Source: Patescibacteria group bacterium | GTDB taxonomy: Bacteria; Patescibacteriota; Kazan-3B-28 | Assembly: GCA_041649135.1 (NCBI GenBank) | Contig: JBAZNQ010000001.1 | Coordinates: 227,037-291,036, forward strand | Direction: 5' to 3' | DNA: 64,000 bases | Shown here: positions 2,806 through 58,065 of the stretch, piece after piece | How the letters are laid out: each line of letters opens with the position of its first letter | Position numbering within the stretch: the stretch's first letter is position 1 | Translations under genes and position numbers: made by a program | Notes under the pieces: model-generated | Seen by the model: the letters and a program-made list of their open reading frames with translations, nothing else | Databases searched by the model: none | Told to the model about the DNA's origin: nothing

Positions 2806-3498
2806 CTAGCGACTATTTTTCTTACGCCACTCCTCCACCTTCCCGTGATGCCCCGACAACAAAACTTTCGGTACCTTGTGCCCTTCAAACACCTCTGGTC
2901 GAGTGTATTGCGGATGTTCCAAATTATTTCCTACTGAAAAACTTTCATACTTAGCTGATTCCTCATTGTGTAATACATCCGGTAATAATCTCGCCACCGA
3001 CTCCATTACCGTCAGCGCGCCCAATTCTCCACCCATCAATACGAAATCACCTACTGATAATTTTTCATCAACATAATATTTAATCCTTTCATCTACTCCC
3101 TCGTATCTCCCACACACAAACACCAACTCGTCATAGCTAGATAATCTCTTCACTTCTTTTTGAGTAAACCTCTTTCCTCTTGGATCTAATAAAATAATCC
3201 GCACCTTTTTACCGTCATTCCGAACTTGTTTCGGAATCTCCCCCCTTTTTAACTTTTCACTTTTAACTTTTAACCGTAATGACCGCAACGCCGCGACAAG
3301 CGGCGGCAAGGTCATTACTAGTCCCGCCCCTCCGCCATACGGCATATCATCCACCGTTTGATGCCTATCTTTCGTAAACTTCCTTGGACTAATAGTTTTA
3401 AGCTGAACTTGTTTCTTCTTTAAAGCTCGGGACAAAATCCCTTCCTTAAAATAATCCTCGATCAACTGCGGAAAAATTGTGATAACTGTAAAACGCAT
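2806..3498 (-). CDS. trmD: tRNA (guanine37-N1)-methyltransferase
   Basis: TrmD SPOUT motifs (MRFTVITIFPQL…DMPYGGGAG…). Sits in the rpsP operon context. Confidence 0.9.
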   Translation of the reverse strand: MRFTVITIFPQLIEDYFKEGILSRALKKKQVQLKTISPRKFTKDRHQTVDDMPYGGGAGLVMTLPPLVAALRSLRLKVKSEKLKRGEIPKQVRNDGKKVRIILLDPRGKRFTQKEVKRLSSYDELVFVCGRYEGVDERIKYYVDEKLSVGDFVLMGGELGALTVMESVARLLPDVLHNEESAKYESFSVGNNLEHPQYTRPEVFEGHKVPKVLLSGHHGKVEEWRKKNSR

Positions 3499-3688
3499 AG
3501 CTAAAGAATACCAGCCTTATCGCCCCAGAGCCAGTTTTCTCCCACATCGTCATTGCGAGAAATAAAATGACGAAGCAATCTGCCCATTTTACCATCCTCC
3601 CTCCTCTGCCGCTTTATGAGACGGCCGTCTTCTGAAGCGGCATATGATTTTTTCTGATCACGCCTGTTTGATTGATTCTTTATCAAAA

Positions 3689-5254: not shown

Positions 5255-5376
5255 TTTTTTGCCTCCAGATTTGGTAAATTGATAGTGATAGATTCTGAAC
5301 CTAGTTCAGAATGACGCAGTATCCACAAGATTCTTCCATAACTATTCACTCTTAACTGTTAACCATTAACTACCCC

Positions 5377-8895: not shown

Positions 8896-9057
8896 GTCAT
8901 CCTCGAACCGATAGCGATAGCGCATCGATATCGAGGACCCAGACAGAAACAAAAACATTTTTCTTTTTTCTTTCTAGATTCCCGTTTTCCTCCCAAGGCG
9001 GACAGGTCACGGGAATGACGACGGGGAGACTAGATCCTGAACTAAATTCAGGATGAC
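8896..9057. repeat. Composite bipartite palindromic element (GTC-ATCCTCGA hairpin, CCAGACAGAAAC spacer, ATTCCCG hairpin, GAC, then an ATCCTGAA hairpin)
   Basis: Member of the element family catalogued in the findings. GTCAT/ATGAC termini and internal perfect stems. Confidence 0.7.
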
Positions 9058-9083
9058 AATAAATAGGTAAATTTTGTTATTTA

Positions 9084-9169
9084 TACGATTCCTTGGCCGC
9101 GACCGCAGGCAGGCTGGGTGCGTCCTGCCCCAACGGGGCTCCTTCGGGGCTGACCTTACCAGAATGACT
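9084..9169. repeat. Partial family-B palindromic element (…CGATTCCTTGGCCGCGACCGCAGGCAGG…ACCAGAATGAC)
   Basis: Shares 40-60 nt with the copies at 14700-14771, 31870-31925 and 52590-52630. Confidence 0.55.
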
Positions 9170-9191: not shown

Positions 9192-9341
9192 CCCTAGATA
9201 CTAGATACTGAATACTAGATACTAAATTGTGTTTCGGATTTCGGATTTAGGATTTGTTTGGTATTTCGTGCTTCGAATTTGTTTCGGATTTCGGATTTCG
9301 AATTTATCTCCCTAGATACTAGATACTGAATACTAGATACT
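9192..9341. repeat. Two 32-bp direct repeats (CCCTAGATACTAGATACTGAATACTAGATACT) flanking an 86-bp (TTTCGGAT)n-like low-complexity spacer
   Basis: Exact 32-bp copies at about 9192-9223 and 9310-9341. Not CRISPR (see rejected). Confidence 0.6.
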
Positions 9342-9346
9342 AGATA

Positions 9347-11125
9347 TTATGCCAACTTTGCCTTTTTGTAATCAACTTTCACAAATTCCGCTACATCATC
9401 CGGCATCACTTTGGCAGTCGTGGTAACCAAAAATCCAAAATCATTTCCCTGTGTCGCTTCACTTACTTCTTCTGTTAAATGTTTAATCAATTTTACCGTA
9501 CCCGAGCCAATTTCTTCATCGCCACGCATAAATTTCACTACATTGCCAAGCCCAATTCTGCCCGACAATACTTTCATCCCAATAATCTTTTCATGCCGAT
9601 CCTCGCGGAAAATCTTTAAGACAGTCGCCTTACCCGATTGGGTCTCAATTCGTTCTGGTTCAATTGATTCCAATAAAATCTTGGTCAAATCATCCGTCAA
9701 ATTATAAATAATATCGTAGCCCAAGATCTGAATTTTATCTTTCTTCGCCATACTAGTGGCTGACGGACTAACATCCACTTTAAATCCCACCACGATCGCT
9801 TTCTCACCTTCCGCCGCCAGAATATCGGACTCGCTAATATTACCGATCCCCTCGCTAATAATCTTTATTTCTCCCTTGTCAGTCCGGATTTTTGATAATT
9901 GATTTTTAATTGCCTCTAACGAACCTTGCATATCCGCTTTTAACACCACTGCGATTTGTGATGCATGCGCCGCTCGGATCTGGGCTGTCAGTCTGGACAA
10001 ATCCGAAGCACTGACGGAAATCTTGCGAGCCGTTGCTTGTTTTGATTTTTGCATCGCCAATTCCCGCGCTTGTTTTTCGCTTTCCACTACTTCAAAAAAT
10101 TCTCCCACATTCGGCACAGCACTAAACCCCGTGACCCTGACAGGCATCGCCGGCTCGGCTTCTTTTACTCGCCGTCCCAAATAATCTTCCATTGATTTTA
10201 CTTTGCCGGCTTGAGCTCCCACCACGAACGGATCACCAATTTTTAGCGTACCGTTTTGTACTAATAAAGTTCCCGTATAACCAACCTTGGGATCATGTTT
10301 AGTTTCGATCACAAAACCAGTCGCCGGCGCTTTTTTATCCGCAGTCAGTTCCTGTAGATCTACTGTCAATAACACCAAGTCCAACAGTTCATCCACACCT
10401 TCACCAGTTTTCGCCGATACTCCAATAATGACATCCTTACCGCCCCATTTCTCCGTTACGATATTATGGGTCGCCAACTCTTGTTCTACCCGCAAAATGT
10501 TCGCTTCTGGTCTGTCAATTTTAGTAATCGCAGTTACGATCGGCACATTCGCCGCTCGTGCCAATTCGATCGCCTCGATCGTTTGCGGTTTTATTCCTTC
10601 ATCTGCCGCCACTACCAAAATCACCACATCCGTTACCTTCGCACCCTGCGCTCTAATCGCCGAAAACGCCTCATGCCCCGGTGTGTCCAAAAAAGTAATC
10701 TTGTGACCTTTGTATTCTGCCTGATAAGCCCCAATATGCTGGGTAATACCACCAGATTCCCTTTCAGTAATCTTGGTCTTCCGAATGTAATCCAACAGCG
10801 AAGTTTTACCGTGATCAACATGCCCCATGACTGTTACGACCGGCGGTCTTTGATCTCCACCTTCCACTCGCTTTACCACTCGTTCTTTTTCGCGTTTTGC
10901 CTCGCTCTCCGCGCTCTGTTCCACGCTGTAACCTAAATCATCCGCCACGATCGCCGCAGTTTCAAAATCGATATTGTCGTTAATCGTCGCCAGTACCCCA
11001 TTGGCTAACAGTTGCTTAATGACTACCGTTACCGGCACACCAAATGATTGGGCCAATTCATTGACCGTCATCAATCCCGGCAAGACTATTTTCTTTTCTT
11101 CATTCATAACATTTTCGAATGTCAT
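9347..11125 (-). CDS. infB: Translation initiation factor IF-2 (short form, no long N-terminal domain)
   Basis: G-domain VTVMGHVDHGKTSLLD, DTPGH and domain II-IV conservation. The ORF runs open up to 11248 through a repeat element. The start is ambiguous between 11125 (ATG contributed by the element terminus) and 11107. Confidence 0.9.
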   Translation of the reverse strand: MTFENVMNEEKKIVLPGLMTVNELAQSFGVPVTVVIKQLLANGVLATINDNIDFETAAIVADDLGYSVEQSAESEAKREKERVVKRVEGGDQRPPVVTVMGHVDHGKTSLLDYIRKTKITERESGGITQHIGAYQAEYKGHKITFLDTPGHEAFSAIRAQGAKVTDVVILVVAADEGIKPQTIEAIELARAANVPIVTAITKIDRPEANILRVEQELATHNIVTEKWGGKDVIIGVSAKTGEGVDELLDLVLLTVDLQELTADKKAPATGFVIETKHDPKVGYTGTLLVQNGTLKIGDPFVVGAQAGKVKSMEDYLGRRVKEAEPAMPVRVTGFSAVPNVGEFFEVVESEKQARELAMQKSKQATARKISVSASDLSRLTAQIRAAHASQIAVVLKADMQGSLEAIKNQLSKIRTDKGEIKIISEGIGNISESDILAAEGEKAIVVGFKVDVSPSATSMAKKDKIQILGYDIIYNLTDDLTKILLESIEPERIETQSGKATVLKIFREDRHEKIIGMKVLSGRIGLGNVVKFMRGDEEIGSGTVKLIKHLTEEVSEATQGNDFGFLVTTTAKVMPDDVAEFVKVDYKKAKLA

Positions 11126-11220
11126 CCTCGAGCCGACAGTATTAGCGAGTCGACATCGGGGATCCAGACAGAAACAAAAACATTTTTCTTTTCTGGATTC
11201 CCGCCTTCGCGGGAATGACG
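11121..11220. repeat. Composite bipartite palindromic element (GTC-ATCCTCGA hairpin, CCAGACAGAAAC…TTTCTGG spacer, ATTCCCGC hairpin, GAC)
   Basis: Near-identical architecture to 8896-9057, 44453-44535 and 52646-52740. Confidence 0.7.
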
Positions 11221-12768: not shown

Positions 12769-12914
12769 GTCATTCTGGGGAGTTCTGCTGGGCAACAGAA
12801 CGACACCAGAATCGTATATTAAGATTCTAGATGCGCCCTCTCTCCTCTGTCCCAATGGGACTCCTTAGAGGCCGGGCTTGCTGCCCGCCCATCGGCAAGC
12901 AAACTAAGAATGAC
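12769..12914. repeat. Family-B palindromic element (GTCATTCTGG hairpin … CCAGAATC …), expanded/degenerate copy
   Basis: Termini and stems match 31836-31925 and 52529-52630. Confidence 0.5.
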
Positions 12915-14593: not shown

Positions 14594-14771
14594 CGTCATT
14601 CTGGCTTGTCCAGAATCTTATCAATAACAATATATTCTTGTATCGTCATCCTCGCTTGCGTTAGCCCTCCGTAGCTCGTAGAGCGAAGGACGGGTCGAGG
14701 ATCGTATAATCCTATCCGATTCCTTGGCCGCGACCGCAGACAGGCTGGAGTCGCTTTGCTCCCCAGAATGA
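14594..14771. repeat. Two or three concatenated palindromic elements (family B GTCATTCTGG hairpin, then GTCATCCTCG…CGAGGATCG, then a family-B 3' half)
   Basis: GTCAT…ATGAC termini. Shared segments with 9084-9169. Confidence 0.6.
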
Positions 14772-14795
14772 CGAGAACACTCCTCACTCCTCACT

Positions 14796-21528: not shown

Positions 21529-21571
21529 GTCATTGCGAGAAAGCCGTTCGGACTCGGCTGACGAAGCAATC
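21529..21571. repeat. Short palindromic element (GTCATTGCGAG … GACGAAGCAATC)
   Basis: Same termini as the copies at 3549-3580 and 27909-28066. Confidence 0.5.
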
Positions 21572-26851: not shown

Positions 26852-26893
26852 AGCCCCTCCGACCTAATCGGAGGTCCAAACCGAAACAAGAAA

Positions 26894-27181
26894 ATGACTA
26901 ATTCATATGTATATATCACAACCACTCAAATTAACGGAACGCTCTATGTCGGAGCAACTGGAAACCTAAAGAATCGTGTCTATCATCATCGGCTAGAAAA
27001 TCTAAACCATTTTACAAATAAACACAGGGTTGACCGATTAGTTTATTACGAGATACACCTCACGCCAGAAAGCGCATTTGCCCGAGAAAAACAACTCAAG
27101 AAATGGAACCGTAGCTGGAAAATAAAACTCATTGAAACAAAAAACCCAAGCTGGAAAGATTTATATCAAGATTTTTGTTAA
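26894..27181 (+). CDS. GIY-YIG nuclease family protein (YhbQ/UPF0213-like, 95 aa)
   Basis: YVYI…NGTLYVGATGNLKNRVYHH GIY-YIG core, then the conserved Glu and the LKKW motif. Confidence 0.8.
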   Translation: MTNSYVYITTTQINGTLYVGATGNLKNRVYHHRLENLNHFTNKHRVDRLVYYEIHLTPESAFAREKQLKKWNRSWKIKLIETKNPSWKDLYQDFC

Positions 27182-27240
27182 TGTTTGGATCCCCGATGTC
27201 GATGCTTCGCATCGGCTCGAGGACGAAAGGACTATCGATG

Positions 27241-27908: not shown

Positions 27909-28066
27909 CGTCATTGCGAGCAATACAATGACGCCCGCCCGCAACGATTCGCCAGCCCGCAGTAGATACAGCGTTTCTGGCGGGCGTAGCGATTCGGGCA
28001 GGAAGCAATCTCTTACCAGATTACCGCGTCGTCCCTCATCAGTACTTCGGGACTCCTCGCAATGAC
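27909..28066. repeat. Palindromic element (GTCATTGCGAG … GAAGCAATCTC … CTCGCAATGAC)
   Basis: Terminal inverted repeat GTCATTGCGAG/CTCGCAATGAC. Internal GC-rich hairpins. Confidence 0.5.
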
Positions 28067-29117: not shown

Positions 29118-30716
29118 TTAATTTCGACTCATTTTGGGACCGCTTGAGGTATCCTCTACCGCAAAACCTAATCTACTAATTTGTGTGCGAAGCTGGTCTG
29201 CCTTTTTCCAATTCTTAGCCTGACGCGCTTTTTCCCGCTCTGCTACCAGTTTTTTCACCTCCACGGGAATCGTTAATGGCTTATCATCTTTCAGCCCCAG
29301 CCCCAACACTCTATCGAAATCCAGTAGGGTGGTCTGCTTATCAGCCAATGACTTTTTTGATTTCACTAACTCCCAAACTACCGCCATCGCCTTTGACATA
29401 TTCAAATCATCATTCAGAGCCGACCCGAACCGTTTTTTGTATGTTGCGTCCACTTTCCCCTTGCCATTCTCCTGCTGTACAGCAGGACGGGAATCCATTT
29501 TTGTTTTTCCTGTCTGGATCCCCGATCGAGTCGGGGATGACGAGGAAGAGATGCTGAATACAGCTCGAAGTTTATTCAAGGAATTGCTAGCACCTTCCAA
29601 TGCCTGCAACGAGAACACAAGGTTACTACGATAATGGCTACCAATCGCCAAGTAACGAAAAGCAATTGGATCAACTTCATTTTTTACTAAATCAGCCAGA
29701 TTAATAACATTGCCTTTACTTTTTGACATCTTAATCATACCCATTTCTTCACCGCAAACTCCGCACTTGCCACAATAAACCAAAGTACCATCTGGTAGTC
29801 TCTTTCTAACTAGCTTTCTCTTGCTGATAGATGTTTCATGCCCCTTGCTACATACCATTTTATTGCTTACCCAGCCAATAAAACTCAATGGATCAATTAC
29901 CATAAAGGCATTATGGAACCAATATTTTGCCAACGGCTTATTGTATGCCGCTTCGCTTTGCGCAATTTCATTATTGTGATGTGTCGCAATATGATCCTCT
30001 CCGCCAGTATGAATATCAAATGGTTGACCTAATTCTTTAGTAGAAATTGCCGAACATTCAATATGCCAGCCCGGATACCCCACCCCCCAAGGAGATTTCC
30101 ACTCCTGTTGCCGTTTTTCTGTTCCAGAAAACTTCCACAGCGCAAAATCGGTCTGCCTCTTCTTTTCCTTGCTGTGCGCCACCCTCGCTCTGCTCGAAGA
30201 CCCCCCAAAGCCTTGGCGAAGGGGGGCCAGCTTGCCGTATCCCTTAAATTTTGCGGTATCAAAATAAATCCCATCAGTAGTTTTGTATGTGTATCCCTTT
30301 TTCTCTAATTTTTTAATTAAAGCTATTTGTTCCTTGATGTACTTACTCGCCCATGCAAATTTCACCGGCATTTCAATATTCAACGCTTTCAAATCTTTCA
30401 TAAACTGCTCGGCATAAAACTTGGTAATTTCCTTCGCGGTTTTGTGCTCTTTCTTTGCTTCTCGTTCTACCTTGTCTTCGCCCGTATCCGCATCAGACGT
30501 TAAATGCCCAACATCCGTAATATTCATTACCTGTTTCACTTTGTAGCCGTTGTATTCCAAAGTTCGGCGCAAAATATCTTCCGCCAAATATGCTCGTAGA
30601 TTACCGATATGCGCATACTGATACACTGTTGGTCCGCAGGTGTACATCGAAACCTGGCCTTTCTTCAAAGGCCTAAATTCCTGCTTCTTCCGACCTAGTG
30701 TATTGAATAGCTTCAT
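29118..30716 (-). CDS. cysS: Cysteine--tRNA ligase (532 aa) carrying an in-frame palindromic-element insertion in the linker before the anticodon-binding domain
   Basis: HIGN, KMSKS (KMSKSKGN) and a zinc-binding Cys. A ~25-aa extra segment is encoded at 29455-29541 by a GTCATCCCCGA…palindromic element. Confidence 0.9.
   Translation of the reverse strand: MKLFNTLGRKKQEFRPLKKGQVSMYTCGPTVYQYAHIGNLRAYLAEDILRRTLEYNGYKVKQVMNITDVGHLTSDADTGEDKVEREAKKEHKTAKEITKFYAEQFMKDLKALNIEMPVKFAWASKYIKEQIALIKKLEKKGYTYKTTDGIYFDTAKFKGYGKLAPLRQGFGGSSSRARVAHSKEKKRQTDFALWKFSGTEKRQQEWKSPWGVGYPGWHIECSAISTKELGQPFDIHTGGEDHIATHHNNEIAQSEAAYNKPLAKYWFHNAFMVIDPLSFIGWVSNKMVCSKGHETSISKRKLVRKRLPDGTLVYCGKCGVCGEEMGMIKMSKSKGNVINLADLVKNEVDPIAFRYLAIGSHYRSNLVFSLQALEGASNSLNKLRAVFSISSSSSPTRSGIQTGKTKMDSRPAVQQENGKGKVDATYKKRFGSALNDDLNMSKAMAVVWELVKSKKSLADKQTTLLDFDRVLGLGLKDDKPLTIPVEVKKLVAEREKARQAKNWKKADQLRTQISRLGFAVEDTSSGPKMSRN
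29455..29541 (-). repeat. Bipartite palindromic element inserted in frame within cysS
   Basis: Minus-strand sense: GTCATCCCCGA-ctcgat-CGGGGAT, CCAGACAGGAAAAACAAAAATGG, ATTCCCGTCC… This is the same architecture as the intergenic copies. Confidence 0.65.
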
Positions 30717-30724
30717 ATTTTTTC

Positions 30725-30853
30725 TTTCTGGATTCCCGCCTTCGCGGGAATGACGAGAAGGGAACGACTTAATGTATTAAATAGTTTTAGTATTTTTCGC
30801 CTGGTCATCCTGAATTAATTTCAGGATCTAGATTCTGAAACAAGTTCAGAATG
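30725..30853. repeat. Two palindromic elements (GATTCCCGCcttcGCGGGAATGAC, and a family-C element with ATCCTGAA and ATTCTGAA hairpins)
   Basis: Family termini and architecture. Confidence 0.6.
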
Positions 30854-30895
30854 ATAAATAATATGTATTAAGCTATTTTCCCCCTCTGGGTGTAT

Positions 30896-31835: not shown

Positions 31836-31925
31836 GTCATTCTGGCTTGCCTGCCCGCCTTGGGAGGGACCAGAATCTTATCGAATATCTATACGATTCT
31901 GGATGCGCTTCGCTTACCAGAATGA
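31836..31925. repeat. Family-B bipartite palindromic element (two ATTCTGG/CCAGAAT hairpins between GTC and GAC)
   Basis: Near-identical to 52529-52630. Confidence 0.7.
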
Positions 31926-31939
31926 CGGCTACCACAGGA

Positions 31940-31994
31940 CTTCACTCTTCACTCTTCACTCTTCACTCTTCACTCTTCACTCTTCACTCTTCAC
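31940..31994. repeat. Heptamer microsatellite (TCACTCT) x7
   Basis: Perfect tandem copies. Partial extra copies lie at 32029-32050. Confidence 0.85.
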
Positions 31995-32032
31995 TTCGTA
32001 GATCATCCCGAAGCCTTGTGCGAAGGGTGACT

Positions 32033-41292: not shown

Positions 41293-41490
41293 GTTTAGAC
41301 GAACAGACCCGACGACTGGCGGGACGCTTTGGTTACTTTGGCAAGACAAAGTAACCGCGGTACAAGGGTCGCGCAGACCATTGAAAAGAAAAAAGAAAAT
41401 ATTATAAGATTCTGGTCAAGCCAGAATGACGAGCTTAAAGATAGCCCTCGGTTCCTCGGGGACACAAAACACAAAACCACAAAAGAAAAC

Positions 41491-44297: not shown

Positions 44298-44452
44298 AAA
44301 TGATAAAAAATCTAAATTCTAATCTCTAAATCCCAAACAAATTCCAAATCCTCCAGAAAATCCTAAACTCGAAATTCTAAATCCTAAACAAATTCTAAAT
44401 TCTAAATTCTAATGCTTCAAACGTTTTCTCTGTCATTCCCGCTCTCTTCTTC

Positions 44453-44535
44453 GTCATTCCCGCGTAGGCGGGAATCCAGACAGAAACAGAAAAAAGTTTT
44501 TGTTTGTTTTGCTTTCTGGATCCTCCGGTCAAGCC
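44453..44535. repeat. Composite bipartite palindromic element (GTC-ATTCCCGC hairpin, CCAGACAGAAAC…TTTCTGG spacer, ATCCTCCGG hairpin, GAC)
   Basis: Twin of 52646-52740. A partial extra GTCATTCCCGC lies at 44432. Confidence 0.7.
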
Positions 44536-44618
44536 GGAGGATGACGAGTTTTATTTTAATCATTGGTATTTCGTGCTTCGGATTTGTTTAGTATTTCGAA
44601 TTTATTCACCCATCATCT

Positions 44619-46095: not shown

Positions 46096-47079
46096 TTATA
46101 CCCCGACCCGTCTCCGCAGATGATAAGTATCTCCATGCTTTAACAACCCGGTATACGAAGCCACCACCTCTTGTTTAGGATTTTTTGCCAGCTTCCGAAT
46201 TGTTCTGCGTTTCGTGGTCGTCCGAATTTGTCGGTGATACGGAAAATGCACCCATCCCAAAAAATCTATCCCCGAAGCCATTGTGCTAATCGACACCTTA
46301 TTTGGATGTAATTCTAGTTTTAAAACCACCTTCAAATAATTCTGAATTTCAAACAATATTTGTTCAAGCCACACCTTATTATCTGACAACACTACAAAAT
46401 CGTCTGCATATCGAATGTAGTGTTTGATTTTGAGCTGATGTTTAACAAACTGGTCAAATTCATCCATATAAATGTTCACCAAAAGCTGCGATGTCAGATT
46501 ACCCAACGGCAACCCTTTACCAACTCCCGTGCTAGTAAAACTTTCTACGATGTTCCGCAACAGCCAAATAATATTTTGGTCTGGAATATATTGAACCAAA
46601 ATATCTATCAATATTTTGTGGTCAATCGACGCAAAAAATTTTCTAATGTCGCCCTTCAACACCCAAACCGTCCGAGTATGATTACAACTAACCTGTCTGG
46701 CAAAATGTCTCAATCGATCCAATGCTCGATGTGTTCCCTTGCCCCTACGACAAGAAAAAGAGTCTGCTATAAAAGTAGTGTCAAAAAACGGATATAGCAT
46801 TCTGTATACCGCATGATGCAGCAATCTATCGCATACGCTAGCCTTGTGAATGTTTCTCGGTTTCGGATCAGAGATATTAAATGCTAGGTACTCCCCATGC
46901 CGATAAGTCCTATTGCGCAAATCTTCATGTAAACTCCGAACATTATCCGCCAATCGATACCCAAATAATTGCACATCTGGCTTCTTGGTCTTGCCTCTAA
47001 AAAACTCCCGCCATGCTGCCAGCAAATTTTCTGGCGAGATGATATCATCATAGCTATGGACGAATTGTTTTCGACTCAT
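46096..47079 (-). CDS. DGR reverse transcriptase
   Basis: RT motifs including YADDFVVL (YxDD) and the DGR-diagnostic LGNLTSQ (SQ rather than the group II SP). An AGAAGG RBS precedes M at 47079. The upstream open frame to 47286 is probably noncoding. Confidence 0.85.
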   Translation of the reverse strand: MSRKQFVHSYDDIISPENLLAAWREFFRGKTKKPDVQLFGYRLADNVRSLHEDLRNRTYRHGEYLAFNISDPKPRNIHKASVCDRLLHHAVYRMLYPFFDTTFIADSFSCRRGKGTHRALDRLRHFARQVSCNHTRTVWVLKGDIRKFFASIDHKILIDILVQYIPDQNIIWLLRNIVESFTSTGVGKGLPLGNLTSQLLVNIYMDEFDQFVKHQLKIKHYIRYADDFVVLSDNKVWLEQILFEIQNYLKVVLKLELHPNKVSISTMASGIDFLGWVHFPYHRQIRTTTKRRTIRKLAKNPKQEVVASYTGLLKHGDTYHLRRRVGV

Positions 47080-47120
47080 CCTTCTAAGGTTACCCCCCCC
47101 CCGAACCTCTGCAACCAAAA

Positions 47121-47468
47121 TTGGTCGCTGTGGTTCTGAAATTGAAAGATAGCTACCGAATTTGGCAGGAGTATCTCGTTCACTTTCCCAGACAAAATCG
47201 CTACACCCTCGGCACCAGAATTGACGCTGTTTTTCTTTCTGCCATTGAGTATTGCTTTCTCGCCAGTTATGCGCCGAAGGATGCAAAACTTAGCCTACTT
47301 AGTAGAACCATCTCTCAAGTTGATTTGCTCAAGCTCTTGCTTCAACTGGCCTGGGAAATCCGCGCTCTTGATAACAAAAAATATGCCCATCTCGGCGAAC
47401 ATCTCACCGAAATCGGCAGAATGCTTGGCGGTTGGAAAAAGGGACTGTTATCAAAAACTCCCGTCTAA
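47121..47468 (+). CDS. Four-helix-bundle protein (bAvd-like accessory variability determinant)
   Basis: Matches the four-helix-bundle/23S-IVS family pattern (…YRIWQEY…FPRQNRYTLG…LSRTISQVD…EIGRMLGGW). Lies between RT and TR but on the opposite strand. Confidence 0.55.
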   Translation: MVAVVLKLKDSYRIWQEYLVHFPRQNRYTLGTRIDAVFLSAIEYCFLASYAPKDAKLSLLSRTISQVDLLKLLLQLAWEIRALDNKKYAHLGEHLTEIGRMLGGWKKGLLSKTPV

Positions 47469-47491
47469 GATTTTAGCGGGAGAAACTTGTG

Positions 47492-47607
47492 AGTTGCAAC
47501 AAGCACGCGGTTGTCATCGTTCCACTGATTGTCGTCAAGCTGGTTCGCGTTGAAGTTCCACTGCCGGTTGTCGGAGTTCCAGTTCACGTTAGCTGCAAAG
47601 ACCTCGC
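47492..47607 (-). repeat. DGR template repeat (TR)
   Basis: On the minus strand this copy carries A at all 16 positions where VR differs. Its translation is Asn(AAC)-rich (…AANVNWNSDNRQWNFNANQLDDNQWNDDN…), typical of a TR. Confidence 0.85.
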
Positions 47608-47917
47608 TTATTGTGACCAAAGCCATCCTTATCACTGCCCATTGATTACTCTTTGGGCTGTATTTTACTTGGGACATCATAAGTCCACCAACTCTGACCA
47701 CCAACTACTACTAGTTTTTGTTGAGGCAAATCAAGACACCCTTGCCCGAACCTTGGTCCGCACAAATCTCGTCATTGATTTGCTCAAAACTCTTTATCCC
47801 AGCCGTAACCGAGATAATACAAAAGTTCTGCCGTTGATTATATCAAAAAAGTCCCAAGGGCTCATCAGCATTTCTGCCGAAGAGCCCAAGGGACCAAGAG
47901 CCAAAGGACTGAAAGGA

Positions 47918-48541
47918 CTAACTGACCGAAGAGTCAGTAGTTGCAACAAGCACGCGGTGGCCATCGTACCACTGAAAGTCGTCAAGCCGGAACGCGCGGA
48001 AGCTCCACTGCCGGTAGTCGGAGTGCCAGCTCACGAAAGCTGCAAAGACCTCGCCATTAACACCGTACACATAGACGATGTTAACGTAGCCATTAGCAAG
48101 CAAGACTCCCCGCTTGCCATTGGGCTGCAAAGCTGTCAGTTTGGCGAAGCGAGCAAAGAACTCGCTAGCCGAGAGAACGTGATTCTCCGGCAGTTCGCTG
48201 ACTATCTGCTTGTCGTAGGCTGGCTTCTTTAGGTCGAATCTATGCAACCCTCCCTCTGGCAACGGACCGATTAGTTCAGCTGCCGGAAGAATGAACCGCT
48301 TCATGCCGTCCGACAGCCAGACATCGGAACGATCCAGTTCCTTCGGGTCGAAGACCTCGGTGGCAGGAAGCATGGCTGAAGCGATGGGCTTCAGGAAGTT
48401 GTAGACCTTCTTGACCTGCTCCACTGTGAACCGGATAGTGCCGTTAAGGATACCCTCGACGATTTCCATACCGCCGAGTTTCTTCGCCAAGGCATTGGCT
48501 TGCCCCAGTGTTAGACCCATCGCACAAAATTCCTTGCTCAT
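47918..48541 (-). CDS. DGR target (variable) protein with a C-terminal CLec-like variable region, 207 aa
   Basis: The C-terminal ~38 aa (…NGYVNIVYVYGVNGEVFAAFVSWHSDYRQWSFRAFRLDDFQWYDGHRVLVAT) are encoded by VR. AAGGAGA RBS. No obvious signal peptide. Confidence 0.8.
   Translation of the reverse strand: MSKEFCAMGLTLGQANALAKKLGGMEIVEGILNGTIRFTVEQVKKVYNFLKPIASAMLPATEVFDPKELDRSDVWLSDGMKRFILPAAELIGPLPEGGLHRFDLKKPAYDKQIVSELPENHVLSASEFFARFAKLTALQPNGKRGVLLANGYVNIVYVYGVNGEVFAAFVSWHSDYRQWSFRAFRLDDFQWYDGHRVLVATTDSSVS
47939..48054 (-). repeat. DGR variable repeat (VR), followed on the 3' side by the hairpin ACTGAC-cgaaga-GTCAGT (47921-47938)
   Basis: 116/116 alignable to TR with 16 differences, all at TR adenines. 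The first ~20 nt at the VR 3' end (47939-47958) are invariant, consistent with an IMH. Confidence 0.85.
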
Positions 48542-48972: not shown

Positions 48973-49263
48973 AAATTAGCGCAGGCGAAGGCGTTGTTTG
49001 ACCCATCCCCAATTTTGTTTTTCGCGTAGCCCGTCGTCTGTGTCCGCCATAGCCTTGGCGATGGTGGAAGCTCGTAGAGCGAAGTCGGGTCATTCTGAAC
49101 CCTGGCTGCATCCCGCACCCGCGGGCAAACTGGTTTCAGGGTCTCTAGCCAATTTTGTTTCTATTCGTCATTCTGAACTAGTTTCAGAATCTAGATGCTG
49201 AACTAAATTCAGCATGACAAAACTGGTAATGGGAAGTTCTCCGAGAACGAAGAAAGCTAATTT
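48973..49263. repeat. MITE-like element copy 2 (AAATTAGC … GCTAATTT), expanded to 291 bp by nested palindromic-element insertions (e.g. family C at 49167-49218)
   Basis: The ends match copy 1. The interior contains GTCATTCTGAAC-type hairpins. Confidence 0.6.
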
Positions 49264-52528: not shown

Positions 52529-52740
52529 GTCATTCTGGCTTGCCTGCCCGCCTTGGGAGGGACCAGAATCTTATTAAAAACATCTATACGATTCTGGATG
52601 CGGTCGCCATGACGACCTTACCAGAATGACGAGACACTCTTCATCGTCATTCCCGCGTAGGCGGGAATCCAGACAGAAACAGAAAAAGATTTATTGTTTA
52701 TTGTTCTTTTCTGGATCCCCGGGTCAAGCCCGAGGATGAC
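52529..52740. repeat. Family-B element (52529-52630) directly followed by a composite ATTCCCGC / ATCCCCGGG-hairpin element (52646-52740)
   Basis: Near-identical to the 31836-31925 and 44453-44535 copies. Confidence 0.7.
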
Positions 52741-53375
52741 GGGTTGGAAGGTCTAGAATGACGCAGGAGAAAAGCTTCATTCTTCACTTCCTCCATCTTA
52801 ACACTTCCTTCCCGCAACACCATCGGCCGACCTCCCCCATCCAACCTAACTAATGTTGACGGCTTGCCCGCCAATTTGCCAACATCGACATAAAAATCCA
52901 CCCCACCGCCAAAATATTTCTGTGCCGCTCTCACCGTTTCGGCCTGTGGCTCCCCTGCCCAATTTGCACTCGGTGCTACCAACGGACCGGTTTGTTTCAG
53001 TAATTTTTCCAGTCCAGCATATTTCGGCCAACGGAAAGCCAATGTCCCACCACCCCGATGTAAGTATGTCCATTTTTTGCCGAAACATTTTAAGACCACG
53101 CTTACCGTCCCCGGCCAATATTGTTGTAAAAATTTTTTCTGATTTTTATTTAATCGAACTCCAAATTTCTCCAAATCTCTCAACCCGCTAATCAAAATGA
53201 TCATCGGCTTTTTCGTTGCCCGTCGTCGCAACTTATAAATCCGCTCCACTATTGCAGAAAGCAACGCCGAACCCATCAGTCCATATAATGTATCACTCGG
53301 CATCACCCCCACTTCTCCCGCCAAAATCTGCTTCACCAATTTGCCCGAACGCAACGTCTTATAATGTGGAATCAT
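52698..53375 (-). CDS. tsaC: L-threonylcarbamoyladenylate synthase (YrdC/Sua5 domain)
   Basis: YrdC motifs (…GEVGVMPSDTLYGL…KPMIILISG…). The start is probably M at 53375 (the track ORF runs open to 53438). Confidence 0.75.
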   Translation of the reverse strand: MIPHYKTLRSGKLVKQILAGEVGVMPSDTLYGLMGSALLSAIVERIYKLRRRATKKPMIILISGLRDLEKFGVRLNKNQKKFLQQYWPGTVSVVLKCFGKKWTYLHRGGGTLAFRWPKYAGLEKLLKQTGPLVAPSANWAGEPQAETVRAAQKYFGGGVDFYVDVGKLAGKPSTLVRLDGGGRPMVLREGSVKMEEVKNEAFLLRHSRPSNPSSSGLTRGSRKEQ

Positions 53376-53496
53376 ATTTTCATTATACTTTGTTAAACAT
53401 TGTCCCATTACTACATCAACAACCATTTCCACCAGCATTTAAGAAGGGCGGGTGCAGTCAAAAACTGCTCCCGCCCAAAATCTCTCTTCTCTCAAC

Positions 53497-56579: not shown

Positions 56580-57839
56580 CTAACAGCGGTGTTTCACCAA
56601 CTCACGCACCAGCCGATCTAAATAAATCGTTCTGGATGCCTTCACTAATACGGTATCACCATCCAGCAAGATGGGCAAAATCTGACGAATAGCTGGTTCA
56701 ACTTCTTCTGGTCCGCCCCGCCAATTAATTTTCAGAATTTTATTTGCGTCCATTCCAGCCGCTCCCGCGCCATCTGCGATTAATGCTCCGCCCTCACCCA
56801 TCGCAATTAATAAATCAACTTTCGTTGCTACCAATTCTCCAATTTGATGATGTTGGCTGATTTTTTTATCGCCTAATTCCCTCATCTCGCCCAGAATCGC
56901 CACCCTCCTTCGCCTAGGCTCCGCAGAGCTTTGCCCGTCGGTAGCAGCGATGTCCTGCAAACTCATCAAAGCCATCTGTGTTGATTCGGGGGCGGCATTA
57001 TAAGTATCGTCAATAATCGTCCATTGGTCGGTCTTTTCAATCTGAAATCTGCCGGCAACCGGCTGTAATTGAGATAAGCCGCTTTGAATTTGTTCCGAGT
57101 TCAAAGCGAATTCCTGTCCGACTGCCCACGCCATTAATGCCGCTGGCACAAATTGCCGACCGACCGGCAAACCAACTTCCATCACTTGTTCATGATGATG
57201 CAAGCGATATCGATTCTCGCTCACCAATTCCGCCCAATAATCATTATGCTCATTCCAACCAAATGTTGTTCTACGTTGATTGGGTTTTGCCACAAATGTT
57301 TGACACTGGTCACACTCACCATTAATTACCACCAATCCCTGCTGTTTCACCGCATCAGCCAATGCTAATTTTTCCGCTGTCAATTCCGCTTGATCTTTGT
57401 AAAATTCCAAATGCGTACTGCCGATCAAAGTTATTACCGCTATGTCATATTTAAACCATTTATTAAACCAGCGAATATCATTCGGCCTGTCAGCTGCCAG
57501 TTCCAAAACTAAAACTTGTGGATACTTTTGGCGAAACAACAATTTCATCTTCGCCTGCCAAACCAATTGGCAGTATTGCCCCAGACCAATCTTCGCCTTA
57601 CCATCAGCCGTAAACACCGGCTCAAAACCGGGGGCTATCACTGATGCGGCAATGCCCCATTCAGTATTAGCGTTATACAAACTTCGCTGTACGTCATACG
57701 CTTGCTTTAACACCGCAAAAATCGCCTCCTTGACCGTAGTTTTGCCAACACTGCCAGTAATGGCAACTATCTTCACTTGATACTTTTCGGCCACTAACTT
57801 GGCCAACCAAGCCAACAGATTAAGCGCTAATCGTTTCAT
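56580..57839 (-). CDS. murF: UDP-MurNAc-tripeptide--D-Ala-D-Ala ligase
   Basis: GSVGKTT P-loop and the MurF-type DDTYNA motif. No murE in the window. Confidence 0.8.
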   Translation of the reverse strand: MKRLALNLLAWLAKLVAEKYQVKIVAITGSVGKTTVKEAIFAVLKQAYDVQRSLYNANTEWGIAASVIAPGFEPVFTADGKAKIGLGQYCQLVWQAKMKLLFRQKYPQVLVLELAADRPNDIRWFNKWFKYDIAVITLIGSTHLEFYKDQAELTAEKLALADAVKQQGLVVINGECDQCQTFVAKPNQRRTTFGWNEHNDYWAELVSENRYRLHHHEQVMEVGLPVGRQFVPAALMAWAVGQEFALNSEQIQSGLSQLQPVAGRFQIEKTDQWTIIDDTYNAAPESTQMALMSLQDIAATDGQSSAEPRRRRVAILGEMRELGDKKISQHHQIGELVATKVDLLIAMGEGGALIADGAGAAGMDANKILKINWRGGPEEVEPAIRQILPILLDGDTVLVKASRTIYLDRLVRELVKHRC

Positions 57840-57856
57840 TATCTCCCTGCCTCCTT

Positions 57857-57881
57857 GTCATTCCCGCGCAGGCGGGAATCC
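57857..57881. repeat. Single-hairpin palindromic element GTCATTCCCGCGcaggCGGGAATCC upstream of murF
   Basis: Family terminus and stem. Confidence 0.55.
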
Positions 57882-58065
57882 ATTTTCCCCCTCCCACCCG
57901 TTCGTCTATAAGTCTATCTGTCTATAAGTCCATTCGTCTACCCGTCTATTAGTCTACCCAAAAATCCGCCCCCAGCCTAGTATTTCATTGAATCTCCGCC
58001 AATCCAAACAATCTCCACCCATATCTTTTTGGTTAGATTGGATTAAATTGGATAGATTGGTTAGA

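Follow-up and report, generated by a model that had tools for sequence, protein, structure and literature searches.

Hairpin repeats of the probable Ssn-related motif family and a putative ssn cassette in a genome of candidate division Kazan

The 20-bp inverted repeat dRS3 flanks repeat segments of 50-150 bp in the neisserial intergenic mosaic elements (NIME) and was called Neisseria-specific (PMC1797815). The NTS, a 28-nt sequence (CGTCATTCCCGCGMAVGCGGGAATCYRG), and its generalised form, the Ssn-related motif (SRM), were described in 2025 (Chenal et al., Nat Commun 2025, PMC11893778). Across phyla, SRMs associate with SsnA, a small single-domain GIY-YIG protein (cd10448), and the typical gene layout is NTS-ssnA-NTS. 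SsnA binds the hairpin on single-stranded DNA only, showing no binding of RNA or double-stranded DNA, and its cut falls a few nucleotides 5' of the GTC; cleavage depends most on the three nucleotides before the palindrome, binding most on the C after it (PMC11893778). The system was characterised in Neisseria and Wolbachia, in N. meningitidis it reduces transformation by NTS-bearing DNA, and the genomes surveyed in the same study were the RefSeq reference and representative ones, with Rickettsia listed among the SRM-rich genera (PMC11893778). A 2026 preprint includes the SsnA-associated NTS repeats as one natural repetitive element class in a benchmark. The present analysis concerns 64,000 nt of a Patescibacteria group bacterium (assembly GCA_041649135.1, contig JBAZNQ010000001.1, positions 227,037-291,036), hereafter the window, which harbors about 34 oriented hairpin units at about 20 loci (roughly one unit per 2 kb) and a gene for a 95-aa GIY-YIG protein. 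These elements very probably belong to the SRM family, including the Neisseria NTS and dRS3, and would be read by a putative Ssn-type nuclease encoded in the window. The family itself is not new, as dRS3 and NIME date from 2000 and NTS/SRM and Ssn from 2025; the window would extend the Ssn/SRM system to an uncultured episymbiotic lineage of the candidate phyla radiation (CPR), where it occurs at high density.

All units show a common frame, consisting of (C)GTC, a stem opening with AT.C, a loop, the complementary arm closing with G.AT, and a C, followed on the 3' side by CAGA, TAGA, TTAT or GTATA. The pattern GTCATYC-N(10-40)-GRATGAC has no match in the window, and since a single hairpin is never bounded by both GTC and GAC, the unit is asymmetric. 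The enrichment was assessed by anchor-plus-hairpin scans with shuffle controls. A perfect stem of at least 7 bp follows immediately after 25 of the 157 GTCAT sites on both strands of the window, compared with a mean of 0.82 and a maximum of 4 in 100 dinucleotide shuffles; control pentamers in place of GTCAT yield 0-3 stems. The stem is directly followed by a C in 24 of these 25 hairpins. A further scan for perfect hairpins opening with AT recovered the positions named in a preliminary description, which had been made from the sequence alone, together with a few extra ones. Elements are present at all positions listed there, and copies at 3214, 41408, 26855 and 27186 can be added.

The alignment of 22 units separates a fixed from a free part. 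No variation is seen at GTC, the AT base, stem position 4 (C-G) or the C that follows the stem, and five of the eight stem pairs vary on both arms. The covariation score is 0.54 compared with 0.20 for shuffled data, a value reached by none of 500 shuffles, and shifting the 3' partner abolishes the pairing. As the 22 units were preselected for perfect stems, their pairing percentage is no evidence, in contrast to the number of pair types and the difference from the shuffles. With this reservation, the compensatory stem changes noted earlier are borne out. New, again complementary stems (ATTCCCGA and ATTCCGGA) occur in units elsewhere on the contig, beyond the window. The invariants (GTC in 22 of 22 aligned units, C after the stem at 24 of 25 sites) agree with the mutagenesis map of SsnA. 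The earlier statement that the repeats are not junk is upheld, and their fixed termini and free stem point to a protein reading a DNA hairpin.

The architecture had been regarded as distinctive, and this view is given up, as it is that of the dRS3/NTS/SRM family (PMC1797815; PMC11893778). Exact dRS3 (ATTCCC-N8-GGGAAT) is found at five window positions (11197, 30732, 44456, 52649 and 57860), and the ATTCCCGC copies show the Neisseria dRS3/NTS sequence unchanged. The published regular expression for SRMs, HGTCWYN(0-2)YYVSBRHN(0-5)WNVSBRGN(0-2)RNCYNB (PMC11893778), matches the window 8 times, compared with a mean of 0.19 in 100 dinucleotide shuffles. Two of the eight matches show the exact 28-nt NTS pattern (11193-11220 and 30728-30755, both minus), two deviate from it at the M position, where they have T (44452-44479 and 52645-52672), and another at its first and last bases (57856-57883). 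With the Ssn/SRM system the window further shares the oriented frame (CGTC, AT.C stem, C after the stem, CYRG), a small single-domain GIY-YIG gene, the SRM-gene-SRM layout and a strong enrichment of the repeats. As in NIME (Parkhill 2000; Bentley 2007; PMC1797815), 20-bp ATTCCC-N8-GGGAAT hairpins alternate with spacer families in arrays, and the array content at fixed chromosomal positions varies between relatives. In contrast to NIME, an array comprises no more than 1-4 units and is situated among housekeeping operons instead of beside surface-protein genes, and the narrow dRS3 definition covers only part of the hairpins, most of which have other stems.

Every copy had been described as bipartite, with two perfect hairpins. 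This is true of about nine inverted pairs, in which two units face opposite ways and share their 3' extensions; the remaining copies are single units or arrays, and several stems are imperfect (8896, 11121, 52711 and 9086-9168). The span 8896-9057 given earlier resolves into a pair (8896-9019) and a separate single unit (9033-9057). The three spacer types proposed earlier are recovered, namely type A (CCAGACAGAAAC...TTTCTGG), type B (CTAG) and type C (CTTATCGAATATCTATACG). Type D (GTCATTGCGAG...GAAGCAATC) keeps the outer GTC...C frame and shows G-C instead of C-G at stem position 4. At least eight stem variants occur within the 64 kb, the majority of them not covered by the published regular expression; the variants beyond it include A/T-rich stems, loops of up to about 70 nt, and the 3' extensions CTTAT and CGTATA. 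As single-stranded DNA, the inverted pairs fold with z-scores of -4.3 to -8.0 relative to shuffles, the type A pair into a four-way junction with the outer stem CGTCA/TGACG.

Three minor features accompany the units. Some hairpins carry long GC-rich loop inserts, e.g. cttgcctgcccgccttgggaggga, which recur from copy to copy in the window (8977-9019, 31836-31877 and 52529-52570) and in L125, a related metagenome-assembled genome (MAG) introduced below (9861-9914 and 10982-11035), which suggests nested or modular elements within the loops. A half copy, GTCATTCCCGC, precedes a complete NTS by about 10 nt in the window (44432-44442), at L004:2737 and in L011, L012, L026, L048, L094, L096, L099 and L111; this configuration, found again in many unrelated contigs, might be the footprint of an insertion or cleavage process. 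Heptamer/octamer tandem arrays adjoin units at 3247-3274, 5339-5372, 9194-9346, 31940-31995, 44325-44412 and 57901-57959, and in unrelated viral contigs (L010, L018, L026, L035 and L055) NTS copies are likewise followed by arrays of this kind; the association of heptamer arrays with units is not significant among the intergenic segments of the window (5/10/5/29, Fisher p=0.25).

A search for a cognate HUH/RAYT or TnpB-like gene had been suggested; the candidate found instead is a homologue of ssn, so far as can be judged from its domain and relatives. A looser search for the GIY-YIG pattern revealed an open reading frame (ORF) at 26894-27181 on the plus strand that has no entry among the gene calls of the contig. 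The only Pfam domain of its 95-aa product is GIY-YIG (PF01541, E=3e-14). This 95-aa product shares 52% identity (E=4e-35) with the product of an ORF in L107, a contig of 66% GC, which is bounded on both sides by sequences fitting the Neisseria NTS definition exactly. A hidden Markov model built from 80 metagenomic homologues gives the window protein 138 bits, compared with 25 bits for a second GIY-YIG subfamily. A sequence search of the PDB returned a marginal match only, the UPF0213 GIY-YIG protein 1zg2 (E=0.34). A second GIY-YIG gene, of another subfamily, is seen in L125 (18700-19160), where it adjoins an apparent tRNA gene (judged by eye; the stretch ends in CCA). A second copy of the first bases of this stretch (ATTCCCGGGTCGTC) lies upstream of the GIY-YIG gene, as though that gene had inserted into or next to the stretch.

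The putative ssn gene lies between two SRMs whose GTC ends point outward, as in the published NTS-ssnA-NTS layout. Its ORF starts 43 nt past the stop of an upstream ArsR-type gene and in the same reading frame, and the left SRM, forward and degenerate (...TCGGAGG-T-CCAAACCGAAACAAGAAAATG), is continuous with the start codon. In L125, a Patescibacteria MAG, ssn is found at the equivalent place between the genes for the ArsR-type regulator and an SdpI-like protein. In L127, a Kazan MAG, these two genes abut (TTTTTTGCATCATTTGAA) and form an empty site. The comparison of filled (window, L125) and empty (L127) sites characterises the cassette of about 384 bp as a discrete insertion or deletion. On the contig of the window, about 1.2 kb beyond its left end, lies dprA, encoding the DNA processing protein A of natural transformation (L141, 13805-14659), a neighbourhood of interest should incoming single-stranded DNA be a target of Ssn.

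The arrangement recurs widely. A search of metagenome contigs with the 95-aa protein yielded 80 homologous loci (48-63% identity, contig GC 29-69%), 70 of which have both flanks and were analysed over 200 nt on each side. A forward GTC-hairpin-C unit is present upstream in 52 of these 70 loci and a reverse one downstream in 53; SRMs lie on both sides in 43. The 3' context CCAG is seen in 63 of 92 flanking units. Of 25 non-redundant cassettes, 20 have stems of unlike sequence at their two ends, each stem being self-complementary. As both ends presumably serve one nuclease, the protein would read the frame and the hairpin shape, not the inner stem sequence, which would explain the pattern of a constrained terminus and a variable stem.

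The same hairpins are found on viral contigs. The form GTCATTCCCGC-N4-GCGGGAAT occurs in at least 120 viral-contig stretches (contig GC 32-72%), with an oriented consensus, GTC-ATTCCCGC-GNAG-GCGGGAAT-CCAG, and many inverted pairs among the matches listed. The type B hairpin (GTCATYCTGAA-N5-TTCAGRATC) was detected in 71 such stretches and the type C hairpin (GTCATTCTGG...CCAGAATC) in 39; many of these hairpins share arrays with further "GTCAT...ATC" variants or are paired with a canonical NTS, e.g. in L286 and L287.

It is supposed that an Ssn-type nuclease would bind the hairpin on single-stranded DNA and cut a few nucleotides upstream of the GTC, as the characterised SsnA does. The invariant GTC, AT, C4/G and the C after the stem would then be the recognition determinants of the protein, and the rest of the stem would need pairing only, so that it drifts and the changes are compensated. 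By analogy with SsnA, the 95-aa Kazan protein would be expected to cut the hairpins of the window, including types B, C and D; the cassette and the gene-less pairs may spread as mobile DNA, and a role of the system in the control of DNA uptake is conceivable. The former proposal of a protein-recognised DNA cruciform survives in part: a DNA hairpin read by a protein is supported, and the substrate would be single-stranded, not cruciform, going by the published result for SsnA (PMC11893778).

The interior of the type A pairs can be aligned to both ends of the ssn cassette. On the left side ...GGGAAT-CCAGACAGAAACAGAAAAAAG aligns with ...GGAGGT-CCAAACCGAAACAAGAAAATG of the cassette, on the right side TTTGTTTGTTTTGCTTTCTGGATCC aligns with GATTTTTGTTAATGTTTGGATCC. 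Judged from these short A/T-rich matches, the type A pair can be read as an ssn cassette devoid of its gene, comparable to the derivation of miniature inverted-repeat transposable elements (MITEs) from insertion sequences. It can tentatively be proposed, though at somewhat less than even chance, that the SRM-ssn-SRM cassette is an autonomous mobile element of a mechanistically undescribed kind, with a GIY-YIG nuclease and hairpin ends, and the inverted SRM pairs its non-autonomous miniatures. On this view, one 95-aa nuclease would read a fixed frame plus any paired stem, many stem variants could coexist, and copies could settle in frame within essential genes of a reduced CPR genome; dRS3/NIME, the widespread phage and CPR 'GTCAT...ATC' hairpins and possibly other in-frame palindromic elements would form one superfamily.

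Several observations weigh against these views. The published SRM expression fits only 8 of the about 34 units. Types B, C and D were never found flanking an ssn gene in this analysis, and the 110 viral-contig stretches with B or C hairpins contain no ssn gene, so that B and C are tied to Ssn by the shared frame and by co-occurrence only (window 8896-9168; L286/L287). The assignment of the 95-aa protein as an Ssn homologue is provisional, being made through its Pfam domain, the NTS-flanked ORF and the model of its metagenomic homologues. A single GIY-YIG cut in single-stranded DNA is no transposition mechanism and does not by itself explain the insertion of copies. The lack of RAYT, IS110 and other transposase families, which speaks for Ssn, holds for the 83 kb of the contig that were inspected. 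Finally, the same Neisseria repeat, as the 21-mer ATTCCCGCGCAGGCGGGAATC, has been classed as a REPIN population and attributed to a RAYT of Group 2 (bioRxiv 10.1101/2021.07.10.451892).

The last point opens the rival explanation that fares best, in which a RAYT (HUH Y1) transposase from another part of the genome mobilises the repeats in trans as REPINs, and the GIY-YIG gene is no more than a passenger or an exploiter of these hairpins. The geometry of the inverted pairs is indeed that of REPINs, and the likeness to REP and MITE families remarked on at the outset is retained in this respect. As in REP/REPIN-RAYT systems and BIMEs, hairpin repeats share a conserved head, the inverted pair is the likely replicating unit, and the cognate gene, present as one copy, lies between repeats of its own family. 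The head, GTC, is not the GTAG or GTGG typical of RAYT-type REPs, which the window hairpins lack, and a GIY-YIG nuclease takes the place of the HUH Y1 transposase as cognate enzyme. Neither Y1_Tnp (PF01797) nor another transposase family is present in the 83 kb inspected, and the gene physically flanked by hairpins, here as at the 43 of 70 independent loci, is ssn. Mobilisation by a RAYT is accordingly considered unlikely.

A smaller chance still is given to structured RNA elements, such as terminators, attenuators, or processing and stabilising sites, in which the covariation would reflect selection on RNA structure. The elements are indeed strong hairpins between operon genes, and E. coli REP elements influence the stability of mRNAs, which makes secondary effects on transcripts plausible. 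The structured-RNA option of the preliminary description nevertheless finds no support. The only Rfam match in the window, which is 83% coding, is a tRNA-Gln; the units are about evenly split between the strands (about 16 plus, 18 minus), whereas nearly all genes are on the minus strand; the stems are not followed by a U-tract; copies lie in frame within cysS and trmD; and the conserved flanks (GTC, C) fit a DNA-binding nuclease, SsnA not binding RNA (PMC11893778). Least probable of all are attachment or target sites of an IS110/Piv-type recombinase from a filamentous phage or insertion sequence, with the repeats as landing pads and not mobile DNA: dRS3 is the integration site of Nf/MDA prophages in Neisseria (PMC1797815) and the hairpin is common on viral contigs, yet no IS110-type gene or prophage adjoins any window copy and the ssn cassette with its derived gene-less pairs would be left unexplained, although such use is possible as a secondary one under the SRM/Ssn explanation.

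The dynamics of the SRMs in the window can be followed in its relatives. Window CysS is 62-89% identical to CysS of candidate division Kazan MAGs and of one Patescibacteria MAG, and the gene order is conserved; gene content and the CysS relatives place the stretch in candidate division Kazan, and cyanobacterial small dispersed or heptamer repeats were dropped as a candidate. Four relatives were compared (L125, L126, L127 and L132; Kazan/Patescibacteria). The intergenic region upstream of cysS contains SRMs in all four, of subfamilies differing from those of the window, and the recR-eamA junction carries its type C pair in the window only. The loci of the relatives give 0-4 raw scan matches per 8-21 kb, about 0-3 of them genuine units, compared with about 34 per 64 kb in the window. 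An assembly artefact is excluded, as independent Kazan MAGs carry the elements, one of them at the same cysS position.

The location of copies in conserved gene clusters and within coding sequence (cysS, trmD), stated earlier, was confirmed. The insert in cysS (...SSSSSPTRSGIQTGKTKMDSRPAVQQENGKG...) is in frame and is shared with L127 (...MDSRLRGNDKG) and L125; in the CysS alignment it is absent from L126 and the archaeal homologues. Its presence in the window, L127 and L125 shows that it is old and tolerated in an essential enzyme. In trmD, about 20 extra residues (LKVKSEKLKRGEIPKQVRNDGKK) derive from a heptamer array and one unit, 229 residues being aligned to 209 positions of the TrmD profile. 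Rickettsia palindromic elements, likened here by description only, are also palindromic repeats kept for long in frame in protein genes (the cysS insert in three species). The two in-frame copies within essential genes set the window apart from N. meningitidis, where 2% of the NTS lie inside genes, and further differences from the Ssn/SRM system are the CPR host (a candidate division Kazan MAG) and the gene-less inverted pairs, absent from the discussion of the Ssn paper (PMC11893778). Window CysS also contains a Cys-rich, zinc-ribbon-like insert of about 45 aa (...CSKGHETS...CGKCGVCG...; residues ~250-296, positions ~29760-29900) just before KMSKS, which none of the relatives compared shows and which is unrelated to the SRM insert.

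In the text of the Ssn paper, no discussion was found of a host from the CPR, the wide range of stem variants that a single genome carries, a filled/empty site, gene-less pairs or conserved in-frame insertions. The filled and empty sites, the gene-less pairs, the unequal end stems of the cassettes and the cysS and trmD insertions constitute comparative evidence, beyond what that paper treats, bearing on the mobility of Ssn cassettes and on the specificity of Ssn nucleases. For the annotation of CPR genomes, SRM repeats create spurious start codons (that called for infB lies within a GTCAT end), altered gene ends (one gene ends 3' within a unit) and short false ORFs, and ssn itself was missed by the gene caller. 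The elements of the window are listed in Table 1.

Table 1. Hairpin units, inverted pairs and the putative ssn cassette of the window (positions in nt from its first base)
Feature	Position	Strand	Sequence and context
Type D unit	3549-3580	plus	GTCATTGCGAG...GAAGCAATC
Single unit with heptamer array, in frame within trmD	3214-3274	plus	ATTCCGAA stem; encodes LKVKSEKLKRGEIPKQVRNDGKK
Single type B unit	5291-5315	minus	
Type A inverted pair, rbfA-infB intergenic	8896-9019		GTC-ATCCTCGA...TCGAGGA-C-CCAGACAGAAAC-(A/T-rich)-TTTCTAG-ATTCCCGT...ACGGGAAT-GAC (plus strand)
Single type B unit	9033-9057	minus	GTC ATCCTGAA tttag TTCAGGAT CTAG; plus strand reads CTAG-ATCCTGAA-ctaaa-TTCAGGAT-GAC
Single type C unit	9086-9168	minus	Long GC-rich loop; imperfect stem ATTCTGG / CCAAGGAAT
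Type A pair	11121-11219		Called infB start codon (11125-11123) within its GTCAT end
Type C-like pair	12769-12914		Long loops
Array	14595-14772		Single type C unit 14595-14617 and pair 14645-14772
Type D unit	21529-21571	plus	
Left end of ssn cassette, degenerate forward SRM	26855-26893	plus	CCTCCGA-cctaa-TCGGAGG-T-CCAAACCGAAAC, reaching the ssn start codon; DNA fold; aligns with left part of type A pairs
Putative ssn gene	26894-27181	plus	95-aa single-domain GIY-YIG nuclease, probable Ssn family homologue; no gene call
Right end of ssn cassette, reverse SRM	27186-27226	minus	GTC-CTCGAGCCGA..TCGGGGAT-CCAAAC, directly after the ssn stop; subfamily of 8896 and 11121
Type D pair, downstream of SdpI-like gene	27910-28066		Long loops; 27910-28010 forward, 28019-28066 reverse
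Degenerate type A pair, in frame within cysS	29463-29541		Protein residues ~363-403
Canonical NTS and type B pair, upstream of cysS	30731-30855		Single NTS 30731-30754 (minus); type B pair 30804-30855
Type C pair, recR-eamA intergenic	31836-31926		ATTCTGG stems, spacer CTTATCGAATATCTATACG
Single type C unit	41408-41430	minus	
Type A pair, ftsW-murD intergenic	44432-44545		Includes half copy GTCATTCCCGC (44432-44442) in front; four-way junction, z = -8.0
Type B pair	49167-49218		GTC-ATTCTGAA hairpin-CTAG-ATGCTGAA hairpin-GAC
Type C pair	52529-52630		
Type A pair	52646-52741		Right unit overlaps 3' end of called gene 52698-53438(-)
Single canonical NTS	57857-57880	plus	TGTCATTCCCGCGCAGGCGGGAATCCAT; between Mur ligase gene (56580-57839) and penicillin-binding protein (PBP) gene

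Apart from the hairpin repeats, the window harbors a diversity-generating retroelement (46096-48541). It consists of a reverse transcriptase gene (46096-47286, minus), a template repeat (47492-47607) and a variable repeat (47939-48054) at the C-terminal end of a 207-aa ORF (47918-48541, minus). All differences between the two copies of the 116-nt repeat are located at adenines of the template (22 A-to-N changes).

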